Of a stretch of 64,000 bases of DNA, positions 12,814-51,941 are shown in pieces (within the stretch, counting starts at the first letter, position 1; each line of letters opens with the position of its first letter). The notes below the pieces were generated by a model. It was given only the letters and a program-made list of their open reading frames with translations, searched no databases and had not been told where the DNA came from. Both the position numbers and the translations under genes were made by a program. The stretch is from positions 608,001 through 672,000 of the forward strand of contig CAVYCN010000002.1 in assembly GCA_963767005.1 (NCBI GenBank). The letters are read 5' to 3'. This DNA is from an uncultured Actinomycetes bacterium (GTDB lineage Bacteria > Actinomycetota > Thermoleophilia > UBA2241).

Positions 12814-12910
12814 GCCGCTCAGGCGTGCGTGGCTTCGCTGCGCGCCTAGTGCCGTCAGTCGACTTCGTCGCTGCCGCTCAGGCGTGCGTGGCTTCGCTGC
12901 GCGCCTAGTG
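12814..12910. repeat. 59-bp-period REP-like repeat, about 1.6 copies
   Basis: GCCGCTCAGGCGTGCGTGGCTTCGCTGCGCGCCTAGTG at 12814 and 12873; same family as 51776-51941. Confidence 0.9.
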
Positions 12911-31469: not shown

Positions 31470-31847
31470 TCAGTCGACGTCGGGCAGGAGCTCGGCCCGG
31501 CCCGTCTCGGGCGGCGCGCCGACCACGAGGACGACGAGCTCGGCGTCGGCCTCGTTGCGGATCTGCTGGCCGGTGTCGGTGCCGACCACGGCCACGCCGC
31601 CGCGCGGCAGCACGGCGCGCTCGGGCGGGTCGCCGAGCAGGAGCGTCGCGGTGCCCTCGAGGACGACGAACATCTCCTCCTGGGCATGCTCGACGTGACG
31701 CGTGCCACGCGTGCCGGGCGGCAGGTGCCAGATGTTCGCCCGCATGCCGGCCAGGTCGTCGGACAGGGGCGTGAGGCGGCGACGCTGGTCGCCGCGCTTG
31801 GGCGACTGCAGCTCGCACGCGCCCGGCAGAAAGACCCTGAAGCTCAT
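31470..31847 (-). CDS. Cupin domain protein
   Basis: RHVEHAQEEMFVVLEG cupin motif 1. Confidence 0.85.
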   Translation of the reverse strand: MSFRVFLPGACELQSPKRGDQRRRLTPLSDDLAGMRANIWHLPPGTRGTRHVEHAQEEMFVVLEGTATLLLGDPPERAVLPRGGVAVVGTDTGQQIRNEADAELVVLVVGAPPETGRAELLPDVD

Positions 31848-31853
31848 GTCGGC

Positions 31854-31882
31854 AGGCTAGCCGACGGCCGCCGGGCGGTCAA
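31854..31882 (-). promoter_or_regulatory. Sigma70-type leaderless promoter of the cupin gene
   Basis: TTGACC (31882-31877), 17 nt, TAGCCT (31859-31854), 6 nt, ATG. Confidence 0.75.
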
Positions 31883-31891
31883 CAGGAGCCC
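31878..31891 (+). repeat. Left target-site duplication (14 bp)
   Basis: GTCAACAGGAGCCC, identical to 46348-46361 and abutting the TIR. Confidence 0.95.
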
Positions 31892-32272
31892 GGGATAGGG
31901 GATAGGGACGCGAGAAATGTCCGGTTGCGTGACATCGGCCAAAGATCGACACTGCCGCGAGGGTGCCGGCGACGGCTCTCCTGCCCGCTCGCCGCGCTGC
32001 GCGCGGCTCGCTAACCCCACCGGAGCGACGGCTCCCGGCGAGGGCCGAGGCCGGATTTCGGACTCCATGCCCGGTGCGCCGTCGCGCCATGGGCCGGCTC
32101 ACTACTCCCCAATCCCAACCCAGCACCGTGCACGCTGGCAGCGCTCAGAATCCGTTGCCCTTGTGGGTCCTGGCACGGGCGTTGGATCGTCGCGGGCGGG
32201 CTCAGGGACCGTCAGACGTGGTCAGGGTTACGAGCGACGGGTGACAAGTCACGGGCTCGCCGCCGCTTCGCG
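31892..32272 (+). repeat. Left terminal inverted repeat (381 bp)
   Basis: Starts GGGATAGGGGATAGGGACGCGAGAAATGTCC; reverse complement of 45967-46347 with one mismatch seen (31947/46292). Confidence 0.96.
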
Positions 32273-32377
32273 CGGCTCGGCGAAAGGGCGACGAGCGAGG
32301 CGTGCGGCTGGGGCGAGGGTGGTCGAGGCGCGAGTCGACGGTCCGGCGCGTCGCGTCGTCGCGGGTGGCGCGGTGGG

Positions 32378-33454
32378 TCAGGGCTCGCCCCCGCTTGCTG
32401 TGGTGAGCACAAGGCGTCCGCCGGCGACGCAGCCGTCCTTGGCATCAAGGAAGGCGACCGCTCGAAAGTCGCTGCCGGCCGGACCGCGGACCTGTTCGTG
32501 CCAGGTCGCACCACCGTCGTCGGTCGCCACGACGATGCCGGCCATCGTGTGTCCGGTGGCGACGTCTCCGGCCACCCAGCCGTGCAGCGAGTCCGCAAAG
32601 GAGACAGCCCACAGGAAGCCGGGCATCCCCGCGGTGTCCTGCAGCTTCCAGGTGGCGCCACCGTCTGTGGTATGCAGGACGGCGATCTTCTGGGAGAACG
32701 GCGGTAGGTTCTGCATGACGGTACCGACGACCCAGCCGCTGCGCTCGGTCGTGAACGTCGCCGCGTTGAGAATGAGCCAGCAGCCCTTGGCCACCCGAGG
32801 CAGTGTCTGTCGATGCCAGGTGACGCCGCCGTCCGTGGTCGCCTCGATAGAGCCTTGGCCGACTCCCCAGCCGTCCTCAGAGGTGACGAAGTCGATAGCC
32901 GTCGTGTCATGTGCGCCGAGACTCCTCCAACGTTTGCCGCCGTCGGTCGTGACGGCGAGGTCACCCGCTGCGAGAAGCCAGCCGTGCCGGGCATCGACGA
33001 AGCTCACGTCGGACAGGCCGTTAAAGGGGGGCTGCTGGACCTGCCAGTGACTGCCGCCGTCGGTCGTGGCCAGAATGACGTGCCAACCACCCACCACCCA
33101 GCCGTGCTTGGCGTCGACGAAGTCGATCGCATCCATGGGATCGGACGTGGGCACGTCTCGTTTGTCCCAGCTACGGCCGCCGTCGGTCGTCGAAAAGACG
33201 CAGCCACCGTCACCCGAACCGACAGCCCAGCCGTCCTTGGCACTGGTGAAGGCAAGGCCGCGGATGTCGGCGTGCAGGCCGATCGCATGCCAAGCGCCAT
33301 CACCGGCCAGGGCGACCGGCGAACTGTGCATCTTGGCCTGCCCGCAGCTGCACAGCAGGGCGGCCAGGACAAGGGTCATGACAGCCACGAGGATGCCGCT
33401 GGAAGCGAGAGTGGCACGACTACTCAAGTGAGACGGTGACCTTCTGCGCGCCAC
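32378..33454 (-). CDS. BNR/YCF48-like beta-propeller lipoprotein (cargo copy 1)
   Basis: Repeated TTDGGxxW Asp-boxes and F.D..HGW motifs; hydrophobic signal ending LLCSC; GTG start after GGAGG. Confidence 0.87.
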   Translation of the reverse strand: MARRRSPSHLSSRATLASSGILVAVMTLVLAALLCSCGQAKMHSSPVALAGDGAWHAIGLHADIRGLAFTSAKDGWAVGSGDGGCVFSTTDGGRSWDKRDVPTSDPMDAIDFVDAKHGWVVGGWHVILATTDGGSHWQVQQPPFNGLSDVSFVDARHGWLLAAGDLAVTTDGGKRWRSLGAHDTTAIDFVTSEDGWGVGQGSIEATTDGGVTWHRQTLPRVAKGCWLILNAATFTTERSGWVVGTVMQNLPPFSQKIAVLHTTDGGATWKLQDTAGMPGFLWAVSFADSLHGWVAGDVATGHTMAGIVVATDDGGATWHEQVRGPAGSDFRAVAFLDAKDGCVAGGRLVLTTASGGEP

Positions 33455-33719
33455 GGGCTCCAGTCCTCCGACGAATGGCTTCGTGGGGTATTTCGTCAGG
33501 CGTGGCCGCAGCCTTGAGACTAGCTGACGGGTAGACCAACACCCACAGATGCTTAGTGAGCCGCGATGACCCGAATTGCCATGGCCTGTCGCTTCAGTTC
33601 GCCGCGCTTCGCGGCTTGCCGAACGGCCGTCGGGCGATGCGGGCGGGGGGAGGGGCGAAGGCAGCCGGGTCGCGAGCGACGAGTCCGGAGCGTCGCATCG
33701 TCGCGGGTGACGCAGTGGG

Positions 33720-34823
33720 TCAGGACTTGCCCCCGCTTGCCGTGGTGAGCACGAGCTGGCCGCCGGCGACGCAGCCATGTCGAGCATCAGAAAAGGCAAC
33801 CGCCTTGAAGTCGTTGCCGGCCGGACCGCGGACCTGTTCGTGCCAGGTCATGCCGCCGTCGTCGGTCGCCAACACGACGCCAGCGGTCTTGCCATTGTCA
33901 GCGACGATCCCGACCGCCCAGCCGTGCACTGGATCGGCAAAGGAGACAGCCGAGAGGGAGCCACGGAGCCTTGGTGTGTCCTCCAGTCTCCAGTTGGCAC
34001 CACCGTCAGTGGTATGCAGCACCGCGAGCCTCTCGGGAATCGGAAACACGTTGGGCTCAACCATCGCGCCAACGACCCAGCCGGACCGACGCGTCGTGAA
34101 CGCGACCGTGGAAAGGTCGAGGACCCACCCTCTTGGTACCCGGGGCAGCGTCTGGCGGTGCCAGCTGGCACCGGCGTCTGTAGTGGCCTGGATGTTGCCG
34201 TCAGCGACGCCCCAGCCGTCCTCGGAGCCGACGAAGTCAATCGCCCAGACGCCGTCAGTCGTGAACAGGTGTCGTCGGTTCCAGGTGGCGCCGCCATCGG
34301 TCGTTGCCAGCAGGATGCCGCTGCCGGTGAGGATCCACCCGTGTCGAGCGTCGCCGAGGCTCACGTCGCTCAGGCCGTTGACCGGACTGTGCTGTACCTC
34401 CCAGTGCGCCCCGCCGTCGCTTGTCGCCAGGATAAGGTCGCCACCGACGATCCAGCCGTGCCTTGCGTCGGCGAAGTCGATCGACTCCAGATCGTCGCCC
34501 AGCCCTATCCCGGGGTGCGGCACGCTCCGTCTGAGCCAACTACGGCCGCCGTCAGTGGTCGCAAACACCCATCCGCCATCGCCGACGCCCACGGCCCAGC
34601 CATCATCGGTACCGTTGAAGGCTAGGTCGCGGATGTTCGCGCGCAGGTCGGTCGCCTGCCAGGCGGCATCACCGGCCAGGGCGACCGGCGAACTGTGCAT
34701 CGTGGCCTGCCCGCAGCTGCACAGCAGGGCGGCCAGAACAAGGGTCAAGCCAGCCACAAGGACGCCGCTGGAAGCGAGAGTGGCACGACTACTCAAGTGA
34801 GGCGTTGACCTTCTGCGCGCCAC
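33720..34823 (-). CDS. BNR/YCF48-like beta-propeller lipoprotein (cargo copy 2, tandem paralogue)
   Basis: Same architecture; N- and C-termini nearly identical to copy 1, interior diverged. Confidence 0.87.
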   Translation of the reverse strand: MARRRSTPHLSSRATLASSGVLVAGLTLVLAALLCSCGQATMHSSPVALAGDAAWQATDLRANIRDLAFNGTDDGWAVGVGDGGWVFATTDGGRSWLRRSVPHPGIGLGDDLESIDFADARHGWIVGGDLILATSDGGAHWEVQHSPVNGLSDVSLGDARHGWILTGSGILLATTDGGATWNRRHLFTTDGVWAIDFVGSEDGWGVADGNIQATTDAGASWHRQTLPRVPRGWVLDLSTVAFTTRRSGWVVGAMVEPNVFPIPERLAVLHTTDGGANWRLEDTPRLRGSLSAVSFADPVHGWAVGIVADNGKTAGVVLATDDGGMTWHEQVRGPAGNDFKAVAFSDARHGCVAGGQLVLTTASGGKS

Positions 34824-35139
34824 GGGCTCCAGTCCTCCGACGAATGGCTTCGTGTGGTATGTCGTCAGGCGTGGCCGCAGCCTTGAGGCTAGCCGACGGG
34901 TAGACAAACACCCCCCCGGAACCTAGTGAGCCGCGATGACCCTAATTGCCATGGCCCTTTCGCTTCAGTTCGCCGCGCTTCGCGCGGCTCACCGAACGGC
35001 TGTCAGGCGACGGGTGCGGGCGGAGGGGCAACGACAGCCGGGGCGGGACCGACTGTGAGAGTGCAGCGGGGCCGCGGGGCCGGCGGGCCGCCGCGCCCAT
35101 TCTCGACCCCCCAACAGGTGCTACGATTGCCGCAGGTGG

Positions 35140-36096
35140 ATGGGCGCTCAAGACGCCGCCGAGAGGATGCGACACGTGGTCACGAAACGGGTCTCAGCCG
35201 TCGCCGTGCAGTCTCTGAAGGAAGCTCTGGCCAGCATCTTCTGGTACAAGCGGGACCTGCGGGGCTTCATCTCCAACTGCGTCAGCGATCCGCGACTCTT
35301 GGCGGTGGCGGATTGGGGCGGATACAAACACCAGATTGTCTCGGACATCATCGACTATCTATGCGCTCACCAGCCGCAGTCTTCCGATGACCTCGCCGTC
35401 CTGTTCGACGAGGTGGCTGAGTTCGATTCCTTTCGACACCTTGAACAGCTCGACGACGGGGCTGCGAAGGTGGCGAAGGCAAGACAGGCCGTCGCAGACC
35501 TTCGCAAGATCGTTCGGGCTCACGGCCAATTGACGGCAGAGGCAAGAGCCATCGAGGCGCGACGCAAGACGGCTGCCAGCAAGCGCGAGAAGAACGAGTC
35601 TTTCAAAAGCGCTCTCGACAAGCTGCGGGGGGATTACCTCAAGATGCTCGCCGCCGATTCCCCGCAACAGCGCGGGTTCGACTTGGAACAGCTGCTGTAT
35701 GCGGTCTTCGCGTTGTTCGATCTGGACCCGAAGGCGTCTTTCCGCATCACCGGAGCACAAATGGACGGGGCCTTCAGCTTTGACGGAACCGAGTTTCTGC
35801 TGGAGGCAAAATGGGAGTCGGGGCCGGTCGACGGTAGTGCGCTGGATAGGCTGGCCTCCAAGGTGAAGCGTCAACTCGACAACACCCTGGGGCTGTTTCT
35901 CTCCATCAATGGTTTCTCGGCGGACGGAGTTGCTGACCATTGTCGAAGCCGCCCGGTGCTCATCCTGATGACGGGGGCTGACCTCATGGCTGTGCTCGAC
36001 GGCAGGATAGACCTGGTGAGCCTCCTGCTTCGAAAACGTCAGCACGCTTCGCGGACGGGTCGAATACTCATCACCGTGCAGGAGATTCTGGACTAA
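35140..36096 (+). CDS. Mrr-like PD-(D/E)xK restriction endonuclease
   Basis: QRGFDLEQLL...QMDGAF...LLEAKW...GLFLSINGFS; true start may be 35167 or 35176. Confidence 0.8.
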   Translation: MGAQDAAERMRHVVTKRVSAVAVQSLKEALASIFWYKRDLRGFISNCVSDPRLLAVADWGGYKHQIVSDIIDYLCAHQPQSSDDLAVLFDEVAEFDSFRHLEQLDDGAAKVAKARQAVADLRKIVRAHGQLTAEARAIEARRKTAASKREKNESFKSALDKLRGDYLKMLAADSPQQRGFDLEQLLYAVFALFDLDPKASFRITGAQMDGAFSFDGTEFLLEAKWESGPVDGSALDRLASKVKRQLDNTLGLFLSINGFSADGVADHCRSRPVLILMTGADLMAVLDGRIDLVSLLLRKRQHASRTGRILITVQEILD

Positions 36097-39000
36097 TCCC
36101 GGCTCGCCTGGCTCTTTGCCGACATAATGCACTACAGAACGTCGCTCGCACCTTCACGGCTCCGCCGCAGACGGGACAAATCCGAGTCCGCTTGCCCAGC
36201 TCCCCAACATAGGCGCGCAGCGCCGCCATGTCGCCGCGCGGAACCTCCAACCCGGCGGCCGCGAGCCGCGCTCGCGCCTCTTGCGTCGCAAGCGCCGTGA
36301 GCGCGGCGCGGTTCTCCGGTTGCGGTAGCGATTCACCCTTGAGGTTGCGCCGCAGTGTGCGCACGTCCACGTCCGCTGCTGCGGCAATTGCGCTCTGGCG
36401 CAGGGTCCTGAGCACGGGAACCACCAACCGCACAAACGGATCGTTGCTCGGGTCGACATACTCGTTCATGACCTCGTCTTCGTCTTCGATAAGACCGTGC
36501 TGTACCTCTTTGAGGCGGTTGGTCTCCTTACCCACGTAGATGACGCGTAGCGCTTCGACTGGCCTGCGCCGCAACACTCCGACGGTTGTCTGCGAGCACG
36601 GCTGTCCACCTGGCGCGAGACTCTTGAATTCGCGATGACAGCGGTATTCGGCGACCACATCGGCATAGGTCTTCACCCGGGCGACCCCGGGCGCGAGCGC
36701 GTCGCCTGTAGTCACGCGGTACGCCTTGCCGCTGTAGCGGTCCGTGTAGCGCAGCTTCAGCCATTGGCTCGGGTCGGCGTTGTACGGAGCGATGAGATGG
36801 AAGGGCTTGAGCGGGTCAATGCCGGGCGGGTGACCGAGCGGGGCAACTTGTGCCGAGAGCAGGAAGTTCTGGGGCTTGACCTGCGCGGCGTAGGGTCGAC
36901 CCTTGTTTAGAGCCGCAAACAACGTCAGCGTGCGGGGGTCGTTAATGCCGACGCGACCGAGCGCGGGACGCGTAAACCAAGAGGGCGCTTGCGGCAATTC
37001 CCCGAGCACGTCGGCCGCGATGATGTAGTGCCATATCTCTTCGATCCAATCGTGCTCGCGTGAGTCGGGATCGCTCGGGTTGAGCAGGTGCCCCAAGCCG
37101 TGTCGTGAGTACTTGCGGATGACGGGGCGACCGTCGGCGTCCAAGTTGTACATGACATACCGCTTGGCGCTAATCGCGTAGCAGTACAGCTCGCGCTGCT
37201 CGCCGGTGACCTTGTCGAAGTTCTCGTCTTCGGCCTTCAGGACAGACCCGGACACGGCGTCGGGTTCATACGGATTGAGCGCCGCGAAGCGTTGGCGAAC
37301 CTCTTCGACCTCCGCCCAGCTCAGGGCCTTGACGGCTTCACGTCCATCGCACAGGCGGTGCCGCCCGCCCGGACAGGCCAGCAGACCGCCGTCTTCGTTG
37401 CCGACTATCGCCAGCGAGTCGGTATCGCAGAACACATACGATCCGCCGCGCTCGCGCACGCTGCATTCAAGCAACGCCAGCATGAGGCGAGCGGCTGAGG
37501 TAATCAGGGCGGCCAGTGGCGGGAAGCAGAACGGGCCGGGCTTTTCGGGAGCCGCCACCTTGGTTGTAAACGGCTGCCCGTCGCTGTTCCAGGCGGTCAC
37601 CTTGGCCTTGCGGTTGCCCGGCTGTTCCTTGCGGTTCATCTCCGCGAAGATGCCGTAGCTGCCGGCGTTGGCCGTCACCTTGAGCGCCTTCTGCAGGCGC
37701 TCGCGTTCGGTCGAATCGAGGGCCTGGTTGCGTTGCGTGCGCTTGCGTTCCTCGATAACCACCTTAAAGAAATCCTGCGCGCGCGGGTCGACCGGCACAG
37801 CGCCACGCAGCTTGGTCGGCCGCATGCCCTCTTGCTGTCCTTGCGCTTCGAGACAGAAGGCTTCCACCACCTGCGGTGTCTTGCCGGTCAGGAACTTGGC
37901 GGCGACCACGTCGGGCAGGGCAAACCAGACGGCGTTGTCACTTCTCAGGGGATTGGAGCCTATCTGCCAGCTTGGGCCGTGGGGGTCGTACTTCACGCGC
38001 ACGGGGAAGGTGTCGTCCTGCGGTCTGACCTTGACGAACGCCGCAAGCCGTGGCCACGTCTCGCGGCAAAAGCAATCCTCAAGGGTCACCGTGTCGAGGA
38101 ACTCGGCGACCTCTCGCGTCGCCTCGACGGCACGAATCTCGCCAGCGGTAAGCATGGCCCAGTTGCCGAGCAGGGCGTTGACCGTCGGATACATCGAAAC
38201 GAAGTCCGTGTAGACGACCGGCAACGCCACCCGGCGAATGCGACATTCGGCCCGCCCGCCATAGAAGGCGTTCATCGCCGAGCCGAGCCTGTGGCGCGGG
38301 AAGTCGGGCTGGCGGGCAAGCACCGCGTCGAGGCGCATCGCCTTCTGATAGGACTTGGCAAGCGAGGCCGGCGAGAACGCCTTGGTCACCTGCAGCGGGA
38401 TCGGGTGGCGCTCGAACTCCTCTAGCAGCTTCACGAGTAGCTCAGCCGTCGCCTTCACGTCGCGGCGGTTGTAGTCGACGTACTCGGGCGTGATCTTGCC
38501 GTGTTCTTCGGCTTGCTGCTTGGGGTGCTCGACGCCGAAATCCTCGCAGGCTTTGGCGAGCGTGTAGCTGCGGTCGGAGAGCGCGAAGGCCAGCGTGCGC
38601 AGGTCGAGGAAATGTCCCGAGAACGCGCTGCGGCGCTCCTTGCCGTCGTCGTCTTGCCAAGTCTCGTAATCTTCCGGGTCACCGACGCGGCGGTCGGTGA
38701 AGCGGAAGAGATGTTCCTTGGAGTTGAGACTCTTGATAATCAGCAATGGGCGATTGACGTCGGGCCGCAGCACGCCGCTCTCTTTGTCGGGGAAGTCCCA
38801 CAGAGTGAAGGAGAAGCCACCGCCGTATGAACGCCGAGCGTCTTTGACCTCGACGGCCAACCGCGACAGATCGAATGGCAGGTTGAATCCGACGACCAAC
38901 GCCTGTGCCTTGTAGGCCGCCCGCCAGAACGGCCCCGTCACGTTCCGCTTCAGCCGTGGCTCGTAGCGCTTCACTACGAACTCGCGGCGTGAGTAGAGGT

Positions 39001-39337
39001 GTAGCGGCTTGCGGTAGCGCCGCACGTCGAGGTCGGCCTCATGGGCGGCGACATACTCCCGAAGGACGGCGAGCCCTTCGGGGTAGCGCTCGGGCAGCTC
39101 GTCGGCGTAGAAGATGCCCTCTTCAAGACAACTGCCGGGCGCGTGCTTGCCGTAGGCAAGGGCGATGAACCGGTACGAGCCGAAGTTGAGCGCCTGCGTG
39201 GCATCGGTCGTGGTCTCGGTATCGATGACCAGGGCGAACTTGGGCGGCGTGATGAGCGTCGGTTTGTTACGGTCGGGCGCATGGGCGGAGTCCGTGGACT
39301 CCGCCCATGCGCGTAGCGCTATCGTCTCGTGACTCAA
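36071..39337 (-). CDS. polB: Family B DNA polymerase (casposon type) with C-terminal HTH and Zn finger
   Basis: ExoI IDTET, ExoII GFNLPFD, ExoIII YNRRD, YGGRAE, motif A DFVSMYP, motif B KVTANAGSYG, motif C CDTDS, KRY; TTG start overlaps the upstream TGA. Confidence 0.95.
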   Translation of the reverse strand: MSHETIALRAWAESTDSAHAPDRNKPTLITPPKFALVIDTETTTDATQALNFGSYRFIALAYGKHAPGSCLEEGIFYADELPERYPEGLAVLREYVAAHEADLDVRRYRKPLHLYSRREFVVKRYEPRLKRNVTGPFWRAAYKAQALVVGFNLPFDLSRLAVEVKDARRSYGGGFSFTLWDFPDKESGVLRPDVNRPLLIIKSLNSKEHLFRFTDRRVGDPEDYETWQDDDGKERRSAFSGHFLDLRTLAFALSDRSYTLAKACEDFGVEHPKQQAEEHGKITPEYVDYNRRDVKATAELLVKLLEEFERHPIPLQVTKAFSPASLAKSYQKAMRLDAVLARQPDFPRHRLGSAMNAFYGGRAECRIRRVALPVVYTDFVSMYPTVNALLGNWAMLTAGEIRAVEATREVAEFLDTVTLEDCFCRETWPRLAAFVKVRPQDDTFPVRVKYDPHGPSWQIGSNPLRSDNAVWFALPDVVAAKFLTGKTPQVVEAFCLEAQGQQEGMRPTKLRGAVPVDPRAQDFFKVVIEERKRTQRNQALDSTERERLQKALKVTANAGSYGIFAEMNRKEQPGNRKAKVTAWNSDGQPFTTKVAAPEKPGPFCFPPLAALITSAARLMLALLECSVRERGGSYVFCDTDSLAIVGNEDGGLLACPGGRHRLCDGREAVKALSWAEVEEVRQRFAALNPYEPDAVSGSVLKAEDENFDKVTGEQRELYCYAISAKRYVMYNLDADGRPVIRKYSRHGLGHLLNPSDPDSREHDWIEEIWHYIIAADVLGELPQAPSWFTRPALGRVGINDPRTLTLFAALNKGRPYAAQVKPQNFLLSAQVAPLGHPPGIDPLKPFHLIAPYNADPSQWLKLRYTDRYSGKAYRVTTGDALAPGVARVKTYADVVAEYRCHREFKSLAPGGQPCSQTTVGVLRRRPVEALRVIYVGKETNRLKEVQHGLIEDEDEVMNEYVDPSNDPFVRLVVPVLRTLRQSAIAAAADVDVRTLRRNLKGESLPQPENRAALTALATQEARARLAAAGLEVPRGDMAALRAYVGELGKRTRICPVCGGAVKVRATFCSALCRQRARRAGISPESPAR

Positions 39338-39756
39338 AGGGCGGCCTCCGGAAGCTCGCGCCACTCGGGGTACTCGCTGTCGAGCGAGGCGATGAACAGG
39401 CCAAGCAAGCCAGCGAGCCACACGAAGGTATCGGCAAGCTTGCGCAAAAGCGCAGCGGCGGCCACGAGAATCACGCTGGCGACGACCAACAGGATGCGCT
39501 TCGGCGGGTGGGTGAGGTCGACGCCCGCGTCGAGCATGTCGACGTGCAGCTTGCGATGACAGTTGCGGCAAAGCCAGACGGTCAGGTGGGGCAGGTTGCC
39601 AACGCCCGCGATGTGGTGATCTTCGAGCATCGTCTTGTCGACCTCGACAAAGCAGGCGGGGTCGTGCTCGCCACAGAACGGGCAGGCCGTGCCGGGCGGC
39701 ACCTTGCGCTCGCGTTTGGCCGCTCTCGCGGCCTCGCCGATGGGATCGTCACTCAT
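39334..39756 (-). CDS. HNH/Zn-finger protein with a hydrophobic C-terminal half
   Basis: CPFC...EDHHIAG...LCRNCH; translationally coupled to polB. Confidence 0.78.
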   Translation of the reverse strand: MSDDPIGEAARAAKRERKVPPGTACPFCGEHDPACFVEVDKTMLEDHHIAGVGNLPHLTVWLCRNCHRKLHVDMLDAGVDLTHPPKRILLVVASVILVAAAALLRKLADTFVWLAGLLGLFIASLDSEYPEWRELPEAAL

Positions 39757-39768
39757 GACTTCATCGCC

Positions 39769-40380
39769 TCATTTCTCGTAGGGTTCGTACTCAAGCTCGC
39801 CGCTGCGTTCCAGGTCCTCCAGGACCTCCGGGCGCGTCTCAAGCTCGCGGCCGCCGACCTTGACCCCGGCGAACTTGCGCAGCGGCTCGGCGTCGCCGGT
39901 CAGCAGGAACTTCTTGATGGCATTGGCGTGCTCGCCAACCAAGGTAGCCTGGCGCGAGCTGCGCAGGGACACCTCGACCACGCCCTCGGTCGTGACCGCG
40001 TTCATCACGCGGTAGAGGCGGTCGGAGCGGCTGGCCACCGTGCGGCCGCCCTCGCGACGCAACTGCTCGCCTGCGTACTTGGCGACGGTGTTCGGCGTCG
40101 TTCCGGCCTGCTGTGCGGCACGGGTCAACGTCTCGCCGTGGCGAACCTTCGAGAGGGCGTCCAGGGCGCGGGCGCGAGCCTGCTTCTGCGAGGCGCGTAG
40201 CGAGCCATAGCCCTTCGCCGTTACCTTCTCGGCTGCCCTCTGCTGCCCGTGCCAGCTCGCAAAGCCCTGACGTTGGGCGAGGGCGTTGCGGTACTCGCGC
40301 TCCGTGTAGAAGGTCCGGTCCTTGAAGGCTCCGGAGCGCGGCGTGTAGGGCCGCGCCTTGGTGATGGGGGGTCGTGCCAT
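39769..40380 (-). CDS. Basic HTH-domain protein
   Basis: GETLTRAAQQAGTTPNTVAKY HTH; AAGGAAGG RBS; first gene of the polB operon. Confidence 0.75.
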   Translation of the reverse strand: MARPPITKARPYTPRSGAFKDRTFYTEREYRNALAQRQGFASWHGQQRAAEKVTAKGYGSLRASQKQARARALDALSKVRHGETLTRAAQQAGTTPNTVAKYAGEQLRREGGRTVASRSDRLYRVMNAVTTEGVVEVSLRSSRQATLVGEHANAIKKFLLTGDAEPLRKFAGVKVGGRELETRPEVLEDLERSGELEYEPYEK

Positions 40381-40486
40381 GGCACCTTCCTTTGATCGTC
40401 GCGGCCACCTGCCGCGTTGATCCGGAAGGGTAGAGAGCGTGGCTCGCGCTGTGGCGAAGTTTCGCGCGGAGTTGTAGAATCACAGA

Positions 40487-41644
40487 ATGCCACGGCGTCT
40501 GTCGACAGCCTCATATCGCGAGCTGCGCAAGGAAGTCGACGAGCTGCTTTGGCCGCAGGAGAAACCACCCTCGATGACTCAGCTCGAACGCTGGCGGGGT
40601 GGTGGCTACATTCCGCGCACCGAACGTCACGGGCAGGGTCAGCGGCGCGGCATGTGGTCGCGTTACCCGCCGCAGACAGCCGAGCAGGTGGTCGCCCTAC
40701 TGCGCGAGTTGCCGCGCAGTCACTCACTCGACAGGGCCGCGTTGCGCCTGTTCTATCAGGGCTACTGGATTCGCAACGATGTGCTGCAGCGCGCCATTCT
40801 TGCCGAGATGACGCGCGTGCGCGTTCAAATGGAGATGTACGCCGGGACGCGACGCAGCACACGGCAGCCAAGTCCCGACCCCGAGCTAACCGCCACACGG
40901 CTTGCCCATCGGCTGGCGAGCGGCAGACTGAGTGAGGAAACGCGGCGACAGACGGACCTCATGCTCGCCCACCTGGGCAAGGCGCTGCGTTGGGTTCGCG
41001 AAGACGCACCGCAGGACAACCTTGAGACCGTCTATGCGAGCCTCTTCCATCTCTTCCTCAGTGGCGACCTGCTGCCCGGATCGGAGGATGTGCCCTATCA
41101 GGCGTGGGTCGCCTACGGCGGCGAGGCGGCGCTCGCCGGCACGCTCTCTGCCAAGACGGCCGTGGCCGTGGCGCAGCAAGTGGAGAGCGACGAGGTCGTT
41201 CGCGAGGTGCTCTGGCGTCTCAGCCTGCCCGGCCTTACCAAGACGGTGCAGGAGATGGAGACCGCCGACTTCGAACGCGCGCGCGACGACTGCGCCATGG
41301 TCGTCGACCTCGTGCTGTTTATCCTGCGAGTTCTGCTCGCCGCGCTTCCGCCCGACCTTGTTGCGCAACTGCCGTGGCGCGTGAGCAAGGGAGTCGACTG
41401 GAAGCTCGTGGCGAGTGTGGCCGCGCTGCCGCTGGTGTTCGATGTGCGCCGCAAGGAGGCAGACACCTTCGACGCCTTTCTCGCCATCGCACGCGAGCAC
41501 CTGCCGCAGTGGCGAGAGCGCTTCGAGGCGGCCTTGCGAGCGGAGGTCTTCGACGACGAAGAGAAGCGTGATGCGATCCGCGCTGAGACGATTGCGGGCG
41601 CTCAGGGGGCGCTCGCGGCAGGCAAGCCAATCGTAGACGTTTGA
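40487..41644 (+). CDS. Protein with N-terminal MerR-like HTH and alpha-helical C-terminal region
   Basis: SMTQLERWRGGGYIPR winged-HTH-like motif; TAGAAT -10 box 6 nt before the ATG (leaderless); directly upstream of cas1. Confidence 0.7.
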   Translation: MPRRLSTASYRELRKEVDELLWPQEKPPSMTQLERWRGGGYIPRTERHGQGQRRGMWSRYPPQTAEQVVALLRELPRSHSLDRAALRLFYQGYWIRNDVLQRAILAEMTRVRVQMEMYAGTRRSTRQPSPDPELTATRLAHRLASGRLSEETRRQTDLMLAHLGKALRWVREDAPQDNLETVYASLFHLFLSGDLLPGSEDVPYQAWVAYGGEAALAGTLSAKTAVAVAQQVESDEVVREVLWRLSLPGLTKTVQEMETADFERARDDCAMVVDLVLFILRVLLAALPPDLVAQLPWRVSKGVDWKLVASVAALPLVFDVRRKEADTFDAFLAIAREHLPQWRERFEAALRAEVFDDEEKRDAIRAETIAGAQGALAAGKPIVDV

Positions 41645-41707
41645 CAAAGTGCCCCCGCGACCGTGCGACCGGTCCGGGGGCGTGGCACTCGGAAAGGTAG
41701 TTCCGAA

Positions 41708-43270
41708 ATGCAGAACTATGTTAGCGCAACCTTCCGAAGCCTCGACTGCGCGGGCGGCGTCTGCGTGGTCGACGGCTACGGCGTCCAAGTCAGAGTCCGC
41801 AGACGGTCTCTCGTCGTTTCCGATGGCATCGGACGGTTTCGCAGAGAGCGCAGCTTCGCCAAGGCGCTCGTCGGAATCAAGCGGCTCGTGATACTCAGCC
41901 ACGAGGGCGCAATTACCCTCGAAGCGCTGCGCTGGCTAACCGACGCGGGAATCGCTTTTCTGCAGATCGACCGCGACGGCGAGGTGATTGCCGCTTCCGC
42001 GAGTTACGGGCTCAGCGATCCGCGTCTGCGTCGTGCGCTGGCACTCGCGACGACAAATACCGCTGGCCTCGAAATCGCGCGATTTCTACTGCACGCGAAG
42101 ATCGCAGGTCAGGAACGCAATCTGACGCGGCCGATATTCGCGAATAACGTCCGCGCTGAAGTATCCGATTGCCTGAATGTCGCCAAAAATGCGCGGTCAA
42201 TTCCCGAGATACTGACGGCCGAGGCGCGGGGCGCTTTGGCGTATTGGGGAGCCTGGAAGGATGTTTCCCTGCGGTTCGCTCGTAAGGAGGAGAAATCAAT
42301 TCCCGAGTACTGGCGGACATTCGGGCAGCGGCGCTCACCGATTACCGACTCACCGCGCCTGGCGGCGAATCCCGCGAACGCTACCCTCAATTACCTCTAT
42401 GCCCTGCTTGAGGCGGAGTGCCGCTTCGCCTGCCTAGCGTGTGGGCTCGATCCGGGGCTCGGCGTGTTCCACGCAGACCAGAAATCGCGCGACTCGTTGG
42501 CACTCGATCTCATGGAGGCGGTGCGACCGAAGGTCGACGCCTACCTGCTGGACTTGATCGAAGCGCGCACCTTCAGCTCCAAGGATTTCGTCGAGACGAG
42601 AAGGGGCGTCTGCCGCGTGCTTGCGCCGCTCACACACACGCTGGCAGAGACCGCGCCACGATGGGCGGAGGCGGTTGCACCGGTCGTCGAAAACGTCGCC
42701 GCGCTAGTCGTCTCAGGCGGCGAGCTTCAGTTGCGCCTTCCGACACCGCTCACACAGGCGAACCGCAGTGCCGGGCGCAACAGAGTGCGTCGCAACCCGA
42801 CGAAGGCCAAGCCGGCGAGGGCCAAGCTCGCGACGACCTGCGCGAACTGTGGCGGTGCGCTGCCGAGCCCTGACCGCATGTTCTGCAACGACTGTCTGCC
42901 AGAGCACGAGAAAGAGAAGCTAGTCCTTTTCTGCGAGGCCGGATCGGTTGCGTTGGCGCGTCTCCGGGCGGAGGGTCGCGATCCGACCACAACCGACGAT
43001 GCAAAGAAGAAACTCAGAGACGCGCACTGTCGCCACGTCTCCGACGCTGCGCGCTGGGACGCCGAACACGAGCCTTGCGACAGGGCGGAGTTCATTGAGA
43101 AGATACTGCCCGGGCTTCAAGGTGTACCGCTTTCAAGGATGATGGACGCGACCGGCCTGTCACTGCGCTACTGTTCGAAGATTCGACGGGGGCGCGTGCC
43201 GCACCCGATGCACTGGGACGCATTGCGACTGTGCGAACGCGGCGCATCTGGTGCTGGCGTCGACGGATGA
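41708..43270 (+). CDS. cas1: Casposase (solo Cas1) with C-terminal Zn finger and HTH
   Basis: ITLEALRWL, AEARGALAYW (catalytic E), NATLNYLYALL, GLDPGLGVFHAD (H), SLALDLMEAVRP (D/E); tail CANC...CNDC and LSRMMDATGLSLRYCSKIRRG. Confidence 0.95.
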   Translation: MQNYVSATFRSLDCAGGVCVVDGYGVQVRVRRRSLVVSDGIGRFRRERSFAKALVGIKRLVILSHEGAITLEALRWLTDAGIAFLQIDRDGEVIAASASYGLSDPRLRRALALATTNTAGLEIARFLLHAKIAGQERNLTRPIFANNVRAEVSDCLNVAKNARSIPEILTAEARGALAYWGAWKDVSLRFARKEEKSIPEYWRTFGQRRSPITDSPRLAANPANATLNYLYALLEAECRFACLACGLDPGLGVFHADQKSRDSLALDLMEAVRPKVDAYLLDLIEARTFSSKDFVETRRGVCRVLAPLTHTLAETAPRWAEAVAPVVENVAALVVSGGELQLRLPTPLTQANRSAGRNRVRRNPTKAKPARAKLATTCANCGGALPSPDRMFCNDCLPEHEKEKLVLFCEAGSVALARLRAEGRDPTTTDDAKKKLRDAHCRHVSDAARWDAEHEPCDRAEFIEKILPGLQGVPLSRMMDATGLSLRYCSKIRRGRVPHPMHWDALRLCERGASGAGVDG

Positions 43271-43295
43271 GGCTGGTGCGGAATAGACTCGCTCG

Positions 43296-44024
43296 GTGTT
43301 CACAAAGGAACACATTCTAGCTGAGATTCAGCGCACCGCCGGAGCGAACGGCGGCCGACCGCTCGGTCGCGCGCGGTTTGAGGCCGAGACCGGAGTTCGC
43401 GAAGGTGACTGGCTCGGTCGCTACTGGACGAAGTGGGGGGACGCGCTCTCAGAGGCAGGCTTTGCGCCAAACACCTTGAACGCGGCCATCCCAACTGTTG
43501 ACCTGATCGAAAGGCTCGCGCGGCTGGCTCGCGAAGTCGGGCACTTCCCGACAGACGCGGAGTTGAAGATGAAGCATGGACTCGACCCATCCTTCCCGAG
43601 TTCCAACACGTTCTGGCGGCTTGGGTCGAAGCGCCAACGCGCACAGGCGGTTCTAGAGTTCTGCGAACGCTCGGGCAACCTCGACGACGTTGCCGCCCTG
43701 TGCCAACAGCTCACCGACGGCGAGCCGATGGCCCACTCCGACCCCGCCCTGCGCGATGAAGCCGGGCCGAAGGGCTTTGTCTACCTGATGAAGTCCGGAA
43801 GGTACTACAAGATAGGTCGCAGCGTCTGCGCCGAGAAGCGCGCGCGCGAGGTACAGCTTGTGCTTCCCGAGGAATTGAGGCTCGTTCACAAGATAGCGAC
43901 AGATGATCCAGTCGGCATCGAGGCCTACTGGCATTCGCGGTTTGCCGCCAAGCGGAAGATGGGCGAGTGGTTCGACCTGAGAGCCGACGATGTGGCGGCT
44001 TTCAAACGCAGGAAGTTTATGTAG
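43296..44024 (+). CDS. GIY-YIG (T5orf172/MUG113-like) nuclease with N-terminal repeats
   Basis: GFVYLMKSGRYYKIGRS...IEAYWH...GEWFDL; N-terminal WTKWGDALSEAG repeat-like segment. Confidence 0.82.
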   Translation: MFTKEHILAEIQRTAGANGGRPLGRARFEAETGVREGDWLGRYWTKWGDALSEAGFAPNTLNAAIPTVDLIERLARLAREVGHFPTDAELKMKHGLDPSFPSSNTFWRLGSKRQRAQAVLEFCERSGNLDDVAALCQQLTDGEPMAHSDPALRDEAGPKGFVYLMKSGRYYKIGRSVCAEKRAREVQLVLPEELRLVHKIATDDPVGIEAYWHSRFAAKRKMGEWFDLRADDVAAFKRRKFM

Positions 44025-44115
44025 CCCATTCGTCCTAGCCGATCCGGAGGAACTAGGTACGTCGTCGCACCAAGTAGAAGCGAACCGGCCAGCCAGTTGC
44101 CGAGTTACCCTCAGC

Positions 44116-45141
44116 ATGCTCACCTTGGTTGTGTTATCAGTGCTCGTGGCCGGATGCGCGCCTGCAGCCACGACCACCGGAGCTGCGCGCAGCTTGGGCT
44201 GGATCGCACAACAGTCTGGCACCGGAAATGGCCTCATGGGCGTCTGCTTCACCAGTGCCAACGATGGCTGGGCCACTGGAGAGGCCGGCATGCTGCTTGC
44301 CACCTCAGACGGCGGTGCCCATTGGCAAACGGTCGACTGTGGCACTTGGGAGGACCTCTTCGATGTCACCTTCACGGACAGATCGCACGGCTGGCTACTC
44401 GGCAACGACGAGGTGATACGCACCTCGGATGGTGGCAAGCACTGGTCGGTCGTGAGGCTCGCCCCGCCAAACGCGGGTCTGGCCTTGGCGGCGCTTGCGT
44501 TCACCGACCGTCTCCATGGTGCTGCGACAGGGGTAATCGCACGCGGCAACCACCAGGTGGGCGTCATCTTCTACACGTCCGACGGTGGCGCACATTGGCG
44601 CACGGCGTGGAAGCAGAGCCCGACATTTCGCTTCACCAAGTATGAACGGTTCCTGCAACATGCGGCCGGTGTCACGAGCGAAACAGTCGGACTGGGTGAG
44701 ATTGCCGTTGTCGATCGTCAGCACCTCGTGGTCACAGACGGCGGAGGCATCTGGTTGGCCAGCCGGGACGGAGGCGCAAGCTGGTATCTCCTTGCGAACA
44801 GCGAGTTCGCTGACGGCCTGCGCTCGCCGGTGTTCCCAACCCCATCTCAAGGATGGGCGGTCACAGCACGAGGCGGGATAGTGGAGAGCAACGACGGGGG
44901 CCGCACGTGGCAGCTTCGCCAGACCGTTGGCCAGTACTCGCTGTACCAGATCGCCTTTGCCAGCAAGACGGTCGGATGGGTCGTTGGTGATGGCGGGCTG
45001 TTCCGAACGACAGACGGCGGCGCGCATTGGACTGCCGTGCCTGGGCTTCTGCCGGCTTCGTCGCCGCAAGCGGAGGCGTTTGTGGGGCCGGACCACGGCT
45101 GGATCGTCGGCGATGGCGGAAGCATCTACGCCTTCCGCTAG
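44116..45141 (+). CDS. BNR/YCF48-like beta-propeller lipoprotein (cargo copy 3)
   Basis: LVAGC lipobox; repeated TSDGGAHW Asp-boxes; start uncertain. Confidence 0.85.
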   Translation: MLTLVVLSVLVAGCAPAATTTGAARSLGWIAQQSGTGNGLMGVCFTSANDGWATGEAGMLLATSDGGAHWQTVDCGTWEDLFDVTFTDRSHGWLLGNDEVIRTSDGGKHWSVVRLAPPNAGLALAALAFTDRLHGAATGVIARGNHQVGVIFYTSDGGAHWRTAWKQSPTFRFTKYERFLQHAAGVTSETVGLGEIAVVDRQHLVVTDGGGIWLASRDGGASWYLLANSEFADGLRSPVFPTPSQGWAVTARGGIVESNDGGRTWQLRQTVGQYSLYQIAFASKTVGWVVGDGGLFRTTDGGAHWTAVPGLLPASSPQAEAFVGPDHGWIVGDGGSIYAFR

Positions 45142-45331
45142 TTCGGCTCCGCCCACAGCCGCCCCGGGCCGACCATGCTGGGGAGCCGGGCGGCGGCCCT
45201 GCACGCCCGTCGTCCTGACGACAACCGCCGGTGGGTAGGCGAGCCGGACGGACTCGGACAGGCGGAGTCTCGCGCATTCCTCGTGGTGCTCCTCACACTC
45301 GATAGGTAGGATCACCTCCAGGAGGCGGCCC

Positions 45332-45937
45332 ATGTTCGAGGCGCAATACGTCTTCAGCCCATCTGTCGCCCGTCGCGCCTTCGTGAGCGCACTGTGGCAC
45401 GAGCACAGTTCCTTCGTCTGCGCGGTCGTCACTGCTCTCGGAGTTGCAGTTGTCGGCATGCGCTGGTCAGCAGTCCGCCTGCCATGCGTCTTTGTCGCAG
45501 GATTTGCGTGTTTTCCGTGCTTTGTGGCGGCGGTGGTGTTTCTTCGGGTAGGTCCCAACGCGAAGGAGCAAACGGGAACCGTCGAGCTTCGATTCACCGA
45601 GGAAATCTTGGAGTGCTCGGCTCCATGGGGGCACTCTTCAGTCCCGTGGTCCGCGCAGTCCGCCTCGTATCTGACTCGCGGCTTCGTCGTCTTCGTGAGA
45701 TCCAACAAGAAGCAACTCTTCGTACCGCGCAAGGCCTTAGGTGTGGAGGCGCTGGCCTTTGTCCGAGAGAGACTGGACATCGCGAGGCTTCTTTCTGACG
45801 TCTCCCCCCCCGAGTTCGTAGCTCACCCGGCCACATCCCCACTTTCCGGCAAGCCCCATTCCCGACTCTACCCCCAGACGCCACCGGGCCGACCACACCG
45901 GGGATCCGGGCGGCGACCTCCACACTTATCACCCTGA
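45332..45937 (+). CDS. YcxB-like membrane protein
   Basis: Two TM segments followed by FTEE...SVPWS...LFVPRKAL; AGGAGG RBS. Confidence 0.6.
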   Translation: MFEAQYVFSPSVARRAFVSALWHEHSSFVCAVVTALGVAVVGMRWSAVRLPCVFVAGFACFPCFVAAVVFLRVGPNAKEQTGTVELRFTEEILECSAPWGHSSVPWSAQSASYLTRGFVVFVRSNKKQLFVPRKALGVEALAFVRERLDIARLLSDVSPPEFVAHPATSPLSGKPHSRLYPQTPPGRPHRGSGRRPPHLSP

Positions 45938-45966
45938 CGGCGACTCCCGGCAGGTAGGCGAGCCGC

Positions 45967-46347
45967 CGCGAAGCGGCGGCGAGCCCGTGACTTGTCACCC
46001 GTCGCTCGTAACCCTGACCACGTCTGACGGTCCCTGAGCCCGCCCGCGACGATCCAACGCCCGTGCCAGGACCCACAAGGGCAACGGATTCTGAGCGCTG
46101 CCAGCGTGCACGGTGCTGGGTTGGGATTGGGGAGTAGTGAGCCGGCCCATGGCGCGACGGCGCACCGGGCATGGAGTCCGAAATCCGGCCTCGGCCCTCG
46201 CCGGGAGCCGTCGCTCCGGTGGGGTTAGCGAGCCGCGCGCAGCGCGGCGAGCGGGCAGGAGAGCCGTCGCCGGCACCCTCGCGGCAGTGTCAATCTTTGG
46301 CCGATGTCACGCAACCGGACATTTCTCGCGTCCCTATCCCCTATCCC
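45967..46347 (-). repeat. Right terminal inverted repeat (381 bp)
   Basis: Ends CATTTCTCGCGTCCCTATCCCCTATCCC; mirrors 31892-32272. Confidence 0.96.
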
Positions 46348-46361
46348 GTCAACAGGAGCCC
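46348..46361 (+). repeat. Right target-site duplication (14 bp)
   Basis: GTCAACAGGAGCCC. Confidence 0.95.
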
Positions 46362-46565
46362 TCCCGTGCCTGTCCGCACCAGAATCCGTTGGCGGTCCTG
46401 ACGACGAAGGCCGTTTTGCCGTGAAGTCCACGCTCCCCCCTGTCGATAGAAGTACCAGGAGGGTCAGATGCCGCCCCCGGGTACGGGCGGTCACCGAGTC
46501 GCTCTCCACCATCGCCAGGATTTTCCACGGATGGTGGGCGCCATGCTTCGGGAAGGGAGGTCCAT

Positions 46566-46661
46566 ATGAGGGTGCCAAACGCCTGGTTCAACCGCGTCGC
46601 CTTTGCCGCGTTCGTGGTGTCGTGCGCGCTCGCGAGTGGCGCGTTCAAGAAGTGGGCCTGA
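46566..46661 (+). CDS. 31-aa hydrophobic peptide (not in the ORF track)
   Basis: AAGGGAGGT RBS, then MRVPNAWFNRVAFAAFVVSCALASGAFKKWA. Confidence 0.7.
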   Translation: MRVPNAWFNRVAFAAFVVSCALASGAFKKWA

Positions 46662-46731
46662 GCGAACGGGCTCGCTCAGGCTGAAAGGACGTTCACGGCT
46701 CACCAGGCTTCACATGGAGAGGGAGTACGTT

Positions 46732-46842
46732 ATGAAGCAACTGCTTTCGAGCAGGTTCATGATCACCGTCGGCATGATCACCGCGCTGGCGGTCACCAGC
46801 GGTTTCTTCCACGTGGTGCCGATGTGGCTCAAGTGGGACTGA
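46732..46842 (+). CDS. 36-aa hydrophobic peptide
   Basis: GGAGAGGGAG RBS, then MKQLLSSRFMITVGMITALAVTSGFFHVVPMWLKWD; followed by a terminator. Confidence 0.72.
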   Translation: MKQLLSSRFMITVGMITALAVTSGFFHVVPMWLKWD

Positions 46843-51725: not shown

Positions 51726-51775
51726 GGTTCCTCCATGAAGTCGACTGGACCTCCTGGGCAGCTTCCCGGGCCTTC

Positions 51776-51941
51776 GCGCGCCTAGTCCCGTCAGGGGACT
51801 GCGTCGCTGCCGCTCAGGCGTGCGTGGCTGCGCTGCGCGCCTAGTCCCGTCAGGGGACTGCGTCGCTGCCGCTCAGGCGTGCGTGGCTGCGCTGCGCGCC
51901 TAGTCCCGTCAGGGGACTGCGTCGCTGCCGCTCAGGCGTGC
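51776..51941. repeat. Perfect 59-bp tandem repeat, about 2.8 copies
   Basis: Unit GCGCGCCTAGTCCCGTCAGGGGACTGCGTCGCTGCCGCTCAGGCGTGCGTGGCTGCGCT at 51776 and 51835, partial at 51894. Confidence 0.95.

Follow-up and report, generated by a model that had tools for sequence, protein, structure and literature searches.

An intact casposon at a predicted promoter

We analyzed a 64,000-nucleotide (nt) stretch of DNA from an uncultured Actinomycetes bacterium (the window, corresponding to G000:C2:608001-672000, where G000 is the source genome, other G numbers are other genomes and L numbers are fetched loci). The window holds an intact casposon, an element of a known superfamily, which carries genes for a Cas1 casposase and a family B DNA polymerase (PolB) and lies immediately upstream of a host cupin gene (Table 1). 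Because the element, like most of its relatives in several bacterial phyla, sits exactly at the -35 box of a likely promoter, the casposase likely picks promoters as its targets.

The original prediction, made from the sequence alone, described a 14,456-bp segment bounded by 381-bp terminal inverted repeats (TIRs) with one mismatch and by a perfect 14-bp target site duplication (TSD), and remeasurement returned exactly these values. The 14,456 bp lie between the two TSD copies, the single TIR mismatch is at TIR position 56, and the 14-bp repeat (GTCAACAGGAGCCC) is identical at the two ends and cannot be extended. The GC content of the element is 65.2%, versus 72.5 and 71.8% in the flanks, and the interior of the left TIR contains GC-rich hairpins that are also dispersed through the genome. 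The original prediction had proposed looking for the empty site in relatives, and in the same-genus genome G011 we found an alignment that is continuous over the junction (83%), with a single copy of the 14-mer rather than two. Two low-depth read runs contained short stretches identical to the element or to its surroundings, but no piece that crossed a junction. The core genes contain no internal stops and are under purifying selection in comparison with the second genomic copy, the C8 element described below (dN/dS of 0.20 for Cas1, 0.26 for PolB and 0.33 to 0.52 for the others). Given the near-identical TIRs, the perfect TSD, the stop-free core genes and the single-copy empty site in G011, integration was probably recent, as had been proposed. 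The empty site is evidence of a past insertion; integration or excision catalyzed here by Cas1 is putative.

It had also been claimed that cas2, a CRISPR array and any other recombinase are absent, and this too held. A Pfam/NCBIfam scan of the 11 genes called in the element showed no additional recombinase or transposase, Cas2 was not found in G000 (100% complete by markers), and a crude scan of the genome for CRISPR arrays gave only regularly spaced head-to-tail repeats without unique spacers. There was no Rfam match in the window and no tRNA near the insertion site. A separate observation is a family of ~59-nt head-to-tail intergenic repeats (window positions 12814-12909 and 51750-51963; contigs C2, C4, C7, C8, C14 and C18), which is not CRISPR because it has no unique spacers.

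The Cas1 casposase and its relatives

The Cas1 protein matches Pfam Cas_Cas1 with an E value of 5e-38, and its predicted catalytic residues are indeed kept: E187, H270, D282 and E285 (numbered in the 535-amino-acid [aa] open reading frame) are invariant across 43 relatives. Only two Cas1 matches occur in G000, each inside a casposon. The C-terminal 170 aa form a tail made up of a C4 zinc ribbon, two long helices and an XRE-like helix-turn-helix (HTH) domain, for which the structural match has a Z score of only 4 to 6. The best structural match of the Cas1 model is the Methanosarcina mazei casposase 6OPM (Foldseek E value, 1e-18; Z, 27.4), with the Archaeoglobus fulgidus Cas1 nearly equal (Z, 26.0; sequence E values, 7e-37 versus 3e-36). 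In a FastTree phylogeny of 66 rows, the protein fell within a solo clade of 37 rows (support, 100) that is separate from 29 canonical Cas1s, and the loci of 23 of these 29 contain array-like repeats; long branches meet at the solo/canonical split of this tree, and no published casposase is among its rows. The position of Cas1 outside the canonical CRISPR-type proteins, the match to 6OPM and the FCDTDS motif of PolB bore out the identification as a casposon.

The suggestion that this might be an undescribed subgroup was supported, though for a reason that had not been noticed: the clade inserts at predicted promoter -35 boxes, and it is distinctive in this choice of target. It is a large clade and not a rare copy: there were 5,251 Cas1 matches among 8,000 scored, some of them outside this clade. 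Among titled genomes, Thermoleophilia/Actinomycetes supply the Cas1 proteins closest to this one. A search for plasmid carriage gave only distant CRISPR Cas1s in three plasmid records, and a search for phage carriage gave only one partial match to a viral contig. We also noticed a second solo-Cas1 lineage (L172, L174/L180 and L176), with proteins of ~465 aa that are accompanied by PolB and have no zinc/HTH tail; one of these elements, L180, is inserted at a palindrome directly behind tmRNA.

Insertion sites in the source genome

Read on the minus strand, the left junction consists of TTGACC, 17 nt, TAGCCT, 6 nt and the cupin ATG, and the TSD terminates after TTGAC. At 7 of 8 loci in relatives, TAGCCT or CAGACT stands 6 nt before the cupin ATG, and in most of the relatives' loci TTGC.C or TTGAC lies 17 nt ahead of the -10 hexamer; the empty site of G011 retains this promoter stretch. 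Judged from its sequence, the pattern is likely a conserved leaderless sigma70-type promoter.

When G000 was searched with the end motif of the element, four sites were found, and 4/4 are at TTGAC followed after 17 or 18 nt by a -10-like hexamer. The three further sites have TTGAC at the same position of the TSD and TAGACT, CAGAAT or TAGCAT 17 to 18 nt on.

These three sites differ in what they hold. At G000:C8:79022-91330 (L001:3023-15331) there is a second full casposon of 12,309 bp, with TIRs of ~52 bp and one mismatch in the TSD; it is located at TTGACC-17-TAGACT, upstream of a gene for an Rrf2 regulator (Pfam), and its cargo includes a type IIG restriction-methylase-like gene. A 930-bp nonautonomous mini-element at G000:C7:6304-7233 (L003; TSD, 13/14) is located at TTGACT-17-CAGAAT, and its two ends resemble different casposon ends. 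The site at G000:C2:204270-206342 (L002:14270-16343) has a solitary casposon end at TTGACC-18-TAGCAT, interrupted by what reads as an IS3-like element; the orthologous promoter in G011 carries a 10.7-kb decayed casposon (L179 and L219).

The target rule across relatives

Using an alignment of 43 Cas1 proteins, we fetched 161 loci (the best 80 of 361 and the best 80 of 514 confirmed matches, and 1 viral) and added 8 regions. Both ends and a 14-bp TSD were present in 33 of these 169 loci and regions (32 distinct), and with three G000 sites this gave 35 resolved sites, covering Actinomycetota, Chloroflexota and Acidobacteriota. L091 and L128, which have no GGG ends and were judged spurious, and L179, a duplicate site, were dropped; L047/L141, a single site with a 15-bp repeat, fits the rule and was not counted under the 14-bp criterion.

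The TSD ends in TTGAC at 24 of the 35 sites, in TTGTC at 2 and in neither at 9; a random intergenic 14-mer has TTGAC at its edge with a probability of 0.13%. All 26 TTG(A/T)C sites have NANNNT at a spacer of 17 or 18 nt, and 22 of the 26 have TANNNT, with a spacer of 17 nt in 13, 18 nt in 9, and none at 16 or 19 nt. A and T are enriched at -10 positions 4 and 5. As a control, among 577 intergenic TTGAC sequences of G000, NANNNT was found at 103 (18%) and TANNNT at 57, against which the target counts have binomial P values of 1e-18 (24/24) and 6e-17 (20/24); among 4,142 TTGAC sequences in the fetched loci, the counts were 406 and 117. The orientation of the elements relative to the promoter is 13:13, and the genes downstream of the targets are unrelated and of housekeeping type (by eye thrS-, valS-, nuoB- and sodN-like).

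A search blind to the flanks, with a 16-nt end motif in 401 genomes of the class, gave 30 matches in 20 genomes. Among the 24 flanks outside G000, exact TTGAC was present in 11 and a match of at least 4/5 in 18. Eighteen sites were left once those already counted had been removed, and 14 of these 18 are promoter-like: 11 have a clean TTG(A/C)C, 1 has it after a 2-nt shift, and 2 (G007 and G142) combine a poor -35 box with TAGACT/TATAAT at 17/18 nt. Four of the clean sites share one orthologous promoter and are thus not independent.

Several further observations concern repeated use of sites. At L207, L208, L209, L210 and L211, in five genomes of one family, casposon ends with differing TSDs occupy what is apparently one orthologous promoter. 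True tandem arrays with a shared TSD were seen only at G081 and G006. At 13 of 23 TTG-type loci, a casposon-end-like GGG.. sequence abuts the upstream TSD copy, with no further TSD in view, and such sequences are likely what is left of earlier insertions into that promoter. We considered and rejected arrays in which the TSD is repeated as in CRISPR, no third copy having been present upstream in 32 loci (0.1 to 9.7 kb searched). L223 (G226:C9:56569-57002) is a 434-bp mini-element with a perfect TSD at TTGCC-18-TAGCAT, and its interior looks by eye like a remnant of an element end that encoded an HTH.

How the promoter might be recognized

In published casposases, a Cas1 tetramer joins the 3' ends of the element to a 14-bp staggered target, and both a border motif and a "leader" outside it are needed (PMC6614799, PMC6977970, PMC10359463). 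The 3' ends of the elements of this clade read ..TATCCC. Transferred to them, the border motif would be GTCAA, which is the -35 box on the opposite strand, and the leader motif would be the -10 box, 18 to 25 bp outside the TSD, so that the target would take the form [-10 box 18-25 bp outside]-GTCAA-N9. Loop 224-233 of Cas1 would probably contact the border motif, and the zinc-ribbon/helix/XRE-HTH tail would probably extend to the leader motif, with the cut position set by the -35 box irrespective of the spacer. We estimate a probability of about 0.6 that the casposase itself read the -35 and -10 boxes in choosing its site. Direct reading in two parts, by the core loop and the tail, is favored because R191/R192 align into loop 224-233 (with an offset of 17, which is our own reading) and because "RL" is found in this loop in 23 of 25 proteins that target TTG(A/T)C versus 2 of 9 exceptions (Fisher P = 2e-4, a value that ignores kinship and is overstated since the Cas1s compared are kin). 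The XRE-like character of the tail HTH and the palindromic site of L180, whose Cas1 has no such tail, also count in favor of this reading.

The consequences for the host would be as follows. Since the insertion point is upstream of the core promoter, the host gene would retain its -35 and -10 boxes and would lose upstream control sites. Insertion would regenerate the target, so that newer elements would be nearest the promoter and older ones pushed upstream. The excised element is presumably copied by PolB, which is of the CDTDS type. Any housekeeping promoter in any bacterium would be a potential site, which would explain the several sites per genome, the nonautonomous mini-elements and the spread over phyla. 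More tentatively, and with more doubt than confidence, the universal sigma70 promoter could be the attachment site of a widespread bacterial lineage that uses the same code of -35 box, -10 box and spacing as RNA polymerase, in the boldest form riding the holoenzyme, and that places up to 20 kb of cargo immediately upstream of housekeeping genes in any phylum, removing their upstream regulation. Its Cas1 would then be an integrase with a target loop and tail that could be re-aimed, one sister pair having shifted to a tRNA-Glu 5' flank.

A number of findings weigh against direct reading of the promoter by the casposase. Nine of the 35 resolved sites have no -35 match, and 8 of their Cas1s keep the tail. 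One of the nine, L066, has TTTCCA-18-TATACT ahead of tRNA-Trp and, like G142 and G007, combines a poor -35 box with a strong -10 box at the right distance, a combination that is the mode of a sigma factor and harder for a plain double-stranded-DNA-binding HTH. In L079, GTCAA is just outside the TSD, and L180, another of the nine, belongs to the tail-less lineage and lies at a palindrome. L013 and L024, sister elements from Gaiellaceae, are inserted 11 nt upstream of tRNA-Glu(TTC) with a TSD that stops four bases into a hexamer resembling a -10 box, which on sequence grounds is a target shift within the clade. L022, L057, L073 and L119 do not match the rule. Four of the 18 blind sites (G150, G247, G299 and G341) have no promoter sign, the middle of the -10 box is highly variable, the 26 sites having 16 different hexamers, and the correlation in the loop runs across kin, the exceptions being long branches. 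The promoters are predictions from sequence, a generic Escherichia coli-type scan calls none in 31500-46800 (TAGCCT scores 3/6), and the intergenic control was drawn from a single genome, G000, with genes that had been called only roughly.

The main rival explanation, in our judgment distinctly less probable, is that the RNA polymerase-sigmaA holoenzyme of the host marks the site and that sigma or RNA polymerase is bound at the promoter by either the tail of the casposase or the HTH protein, which would fix the cut at the -35 box. We kept this explanation because the -10 box is read in the fashion of a sigma factor, with an invariant A and T, a free middle and weak -35 boxes compensated by strong -10 boxes (L066, G142 and G007); the 17/18-nt slack in the spacer and the TTGCC variants of the blind set point the same way, and such a mechanism would function across phyla. 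Against it, the M. mazei casposase clamps round its 14-bp target, which here includes the -35 box held by sigma region 4, so that the two proteins would be expected to clash, and archaeal casposases target in vitro without host factors. Spacing argues likewise: a 16-nt spacer is frequent in the promoter-like sites of G000 (24 versus 57 at 17/18) and was seen at none of 22 targets (Fisher P = 0.002; P = 0.045 with the loci as background). Mimicry of sigma region 4 was looked for separately, and these comparisons gave no sign of it: the matches of the HTH protein were to generic winged-helix folds, none with an E value of ≤0.001, and those of the Cas1 tail were to XRE-type domains, with Z scores of only 4 to 6. 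A weak Sigma70_r4 match occurs in 2 of 30 members of the HTH-protein family.

The remaining explanations seem less credible still. The variable middle of the -10 box and the A/T enrichment at positions 4 and 5 would be accounted for if the casposase read TTGNC and needed DNA that melts or distorts readily some two turns from it, the -10 box acting as structure (supercoiling-driven opening) and not as sequence; the strict TA...T register at 17/18, with none at 16/19, is sharper than a melting preference in GC-rich DNA, and we regard this as improbable. Even less probable is that integration needs TTGNC only and that the link to the -10 box reflects the survival of intergenic insertions. Insertions within genes would be purged, and 2,602 of the 3,179 TTGAC sequences in G000 are within called genes; survival bias alone nevertheless does not fit the intergenic control, in which the -10 pattern occurs at 10 to 18% of TTGAC sequences versus 85 to 100% of targets, and insertion at a nonpromoter intergenic TTGAC should be no more harmful. 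We give almost no credence to the idea that the long TIRs or the element itself are an assembly artifact or that Cas1 is an orphan CRISPR gene. No read or contig examined spans a junction; set against this are the empty site in G011 and the recurrence of the end motif and of the TSD logic across more than 30 independent assemblies, while the placement of Cas1 outside the 29 canonical proteins and the failure to find Cas2 in the genome speak against an orphan CRISPR gene.

Relationship to known systems

The element combines a solo Cas1 that has the four catalytic residues with PolB, TIRs, a TSD (the median for casposons is 15 bp) and no other recombinase. It has a bacterial host and HNH and conserved HTH genes beside PolB, which define family 3 in the available part of PMC4046053, and its Cas1 domain order is that of AceAut-C1 and its PolB motif C that of PolB_CDTDS. 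Its host, its set of genes and the order of its Cas1 domains make it a probable family-3 (AceAut-C1-like) casposon, in an assignment for which the trees contain no published casposase of families 1 to 4. It has neither the euryarchaeal host and tRNA 3'-end or CGCA-type target of family 2 nor the thaumarchaeal host and compact Cas1 without added domains of family 1, its Cas1 having a 170-aa tail, and it lacks the cas2 gene and repeat-spacer array of a CRISPR-Cas adaptation module.

The closest published relative, with proteins compared by description and not by sequence, is the bacterial AceAut-C1, a family-3 casposon of "Candidatus Acetothermum autotrophicum" (Krupovic et al. 2014, PMC4046053), and not the casposon of Aciduliprofundum boonei. 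As far as the accessible text of that paper goes, AceAut-C1 shares with our element a Cas1 with a C-terminal zinc-binding domain and HTH, a long TIR (602 bp) beginning GGGATAG, and a direct repeat, C+GTCAA.., with the same motif in the same place; it differs in that its cargo is another one, with helicases, and its target is recorded only as "intergenic." StrAlb-C1, HenMar-C1/C2, CitBat-C1, HypCY54-C1 and NitAL212-C1 are described as sharing the Cas1, PolB, HNH and HTH core, GGG(G)TA ends and intergenic sites, whereas their listed TSDs have no GTCAA/TTGAC at the edge, several being palindrome-like, and the StrAlb and HenMar Cas1s have no added domains.

Family-2 casposons (A. boonei and M. mazei; PMC6614799, PMC6977970, PMC10359463) resemble the element in their 14-bp TSD, ..TCCC 3' ends, border motif and outside "leader," C-terminal HTH on Cas1 and PolB, and tandem reuse of sites; the PolB_CDTDS group includes the A. 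boonei casposon enzyme, according to the available part of PMC7544198. They differ in that they target the 3' end of a tRNA gene, at one or a few sites per genome, and have a Cas1 without the zinc ribbon and long helical linker. With CRISPR Cas1-Cas2 the element shares Cas1 chemistry and polar addition beside a leader with regeneration of the duplicated unit, but here both Cas2 and an array are missing, and transcription from the predicted promoter would run away from the inserted DNA, whereas the promoter of a CRISPR leader transcribes into the array. On account of this direction, we rejected, in the form stated, the idea that the promoter is an ancestral CRISPR leader.

The targets of bacterial casposons are given only as "intergenic" in the accessible parts of PMC4046053 and PMC4779613, and the word "promoter" is absent from the available main text of PMC4779613 and from PMC6614799, PMC9939771 and PMC10359463. 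Our literature searches, whose reach did not extend to subscription papers and bioRxiv supplements, found no description of promoter targeting by casposons, and as far as they go the promoter rule is unrecognized in print. Biochemistry of bacterial casposons was absent from the literature examined, and PMC6977970 states the function served by the casposase's C-terminal domain and by the "leader" as an open question. A promoter-reading casposase, if real, would supply a sharp rule for that question, would show how a large element can be harmless, multicopy and host independent, and would predict systematic rewiring of upstream regulation in soil bacteria. The analysis contributes a branch from actinobacteria and Chloroflexota, four sites within a single genome, mini-elements that occur naturally, an empty site with a conserved promoter, a -10 control and a candidate recognition loop. 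The element is a ready substrate for integration assays, because its genes are intact, its empty target is known and natural mini-elements exist, and it is a candidate tool for placing kilobases of cargo at promoter-upstream sites.

Genes carried by the element

The two divergent modules that had been described are present as stated, with corrected likely starts for PolB and Cas1; the genes listed were all found, and five cargo genes (three propellers, the Mrr-like nuclease and the small membrane protein) had been omitted.

Table 1. Features of the casposon and its insertion site (window positions)
Feature	Position	Strand	Basis or remark
Host cupin gene; its likely leaderless promoter is the target	31470..31847	-	Pfam Cupin_2; orthologues in genus
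Predicted -10 box TAGCCT, 6 nt upstream of ATG	31854..31859	-	Sequence; kept in relatives
Predicted -35 box TTGACC; first five bases form TSD end	31877..31882	-	Sequence
Left TSD, 14 bp	31878..31891		Promoter-proximal copy
Left TIR, 381 bp	31892..32272	+	Begins GGGATAGGGGATAGGG
BNR/YCF48 beta-propeller 1, cargo, likely lipoprotein	32378..33379	-	Pfam PSII_BNR; lipobox-like start; start inferred
BNR/YCF48 beta-propeller 2, cargo	33720..34907	-	Tandem duplicate of propeller 1, 69% aa; start uncertain
Mrr-like restriction endonuclease-fold protein, cargo	35140..36096	+	Weak Mrr_cat match, E 0.014
PolB, family B DNA polymerase, ~1088 aa	36071..39337	-	Pfam DNA_pol_B_2 above cut-off, E 3e-7; motifs
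HNH nuclease, C4 zinc motif	39334..39756	-	Motif read from sequence; no Pfam HNH match
HTH protein, 203 aa, third core gene	39769..40380	-	Conserved
385-aa protein, uncharacterized actinobacterial family	40487..41644	+	Weak MerR-like lead; 47% aa to C8-element copy
Cas1 casposase, 520 aa	41708..43270	+	Cas1 domain with a tail of C4 zinc ribbon, long helices and XRE-like HTH
Homing-endonuclease-associated repeats and MUG113/T5orf172 (GIY-YIG-like) domain, cargo	43296..44024	+
BNR/YCF48 beta-propeller 3, cargo	43990..45141	+	Lipobox-like LVAGC near N terminus
Small hydrophobic (membrane) protein, cargo	45332..45937	+	No family match
Right TIR	45967..46347	-
Right TSD, 14 bp	46348..46361		Promoter-distal copy; its TTGAC now points into element

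Cas1 is present in 34 of the 35 resolved elements, the exception being a mini-element, and the HTH protein and PolB are each present in 33 of the 34 cas1-bearing elements; the HNH gene, clustered in 14 of 35, was detected less regularly than the other core genes. The exonuclease and polymerase motifs of PolB are intact (DTE, NLPFD, YNRRD, DFVSMYP and FCDTDS), its C-terminal part has HTH-like and zinc-ribbon sequences, and its likely start is a TTG overlapping the HNH stop; no PDB sequence matched it. PF04471 is present in many homologues of the Mrr-like protein and PADLOC gave no convincing match for it; it is possibly a defense gene. Integron-like cassettes in the cargo were considered and rejected, the repeats flanking the two left genes being explained by tandem duplication and genome-wide hairpin repeats.

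Two observations extend beyond the element. BNR/YCF48 propeller genes are greatly expanded in the whole genome (many loci on 9 contigs), including window positions 48143-49684, and G000 contains at least seven strong RpoD-like matches.

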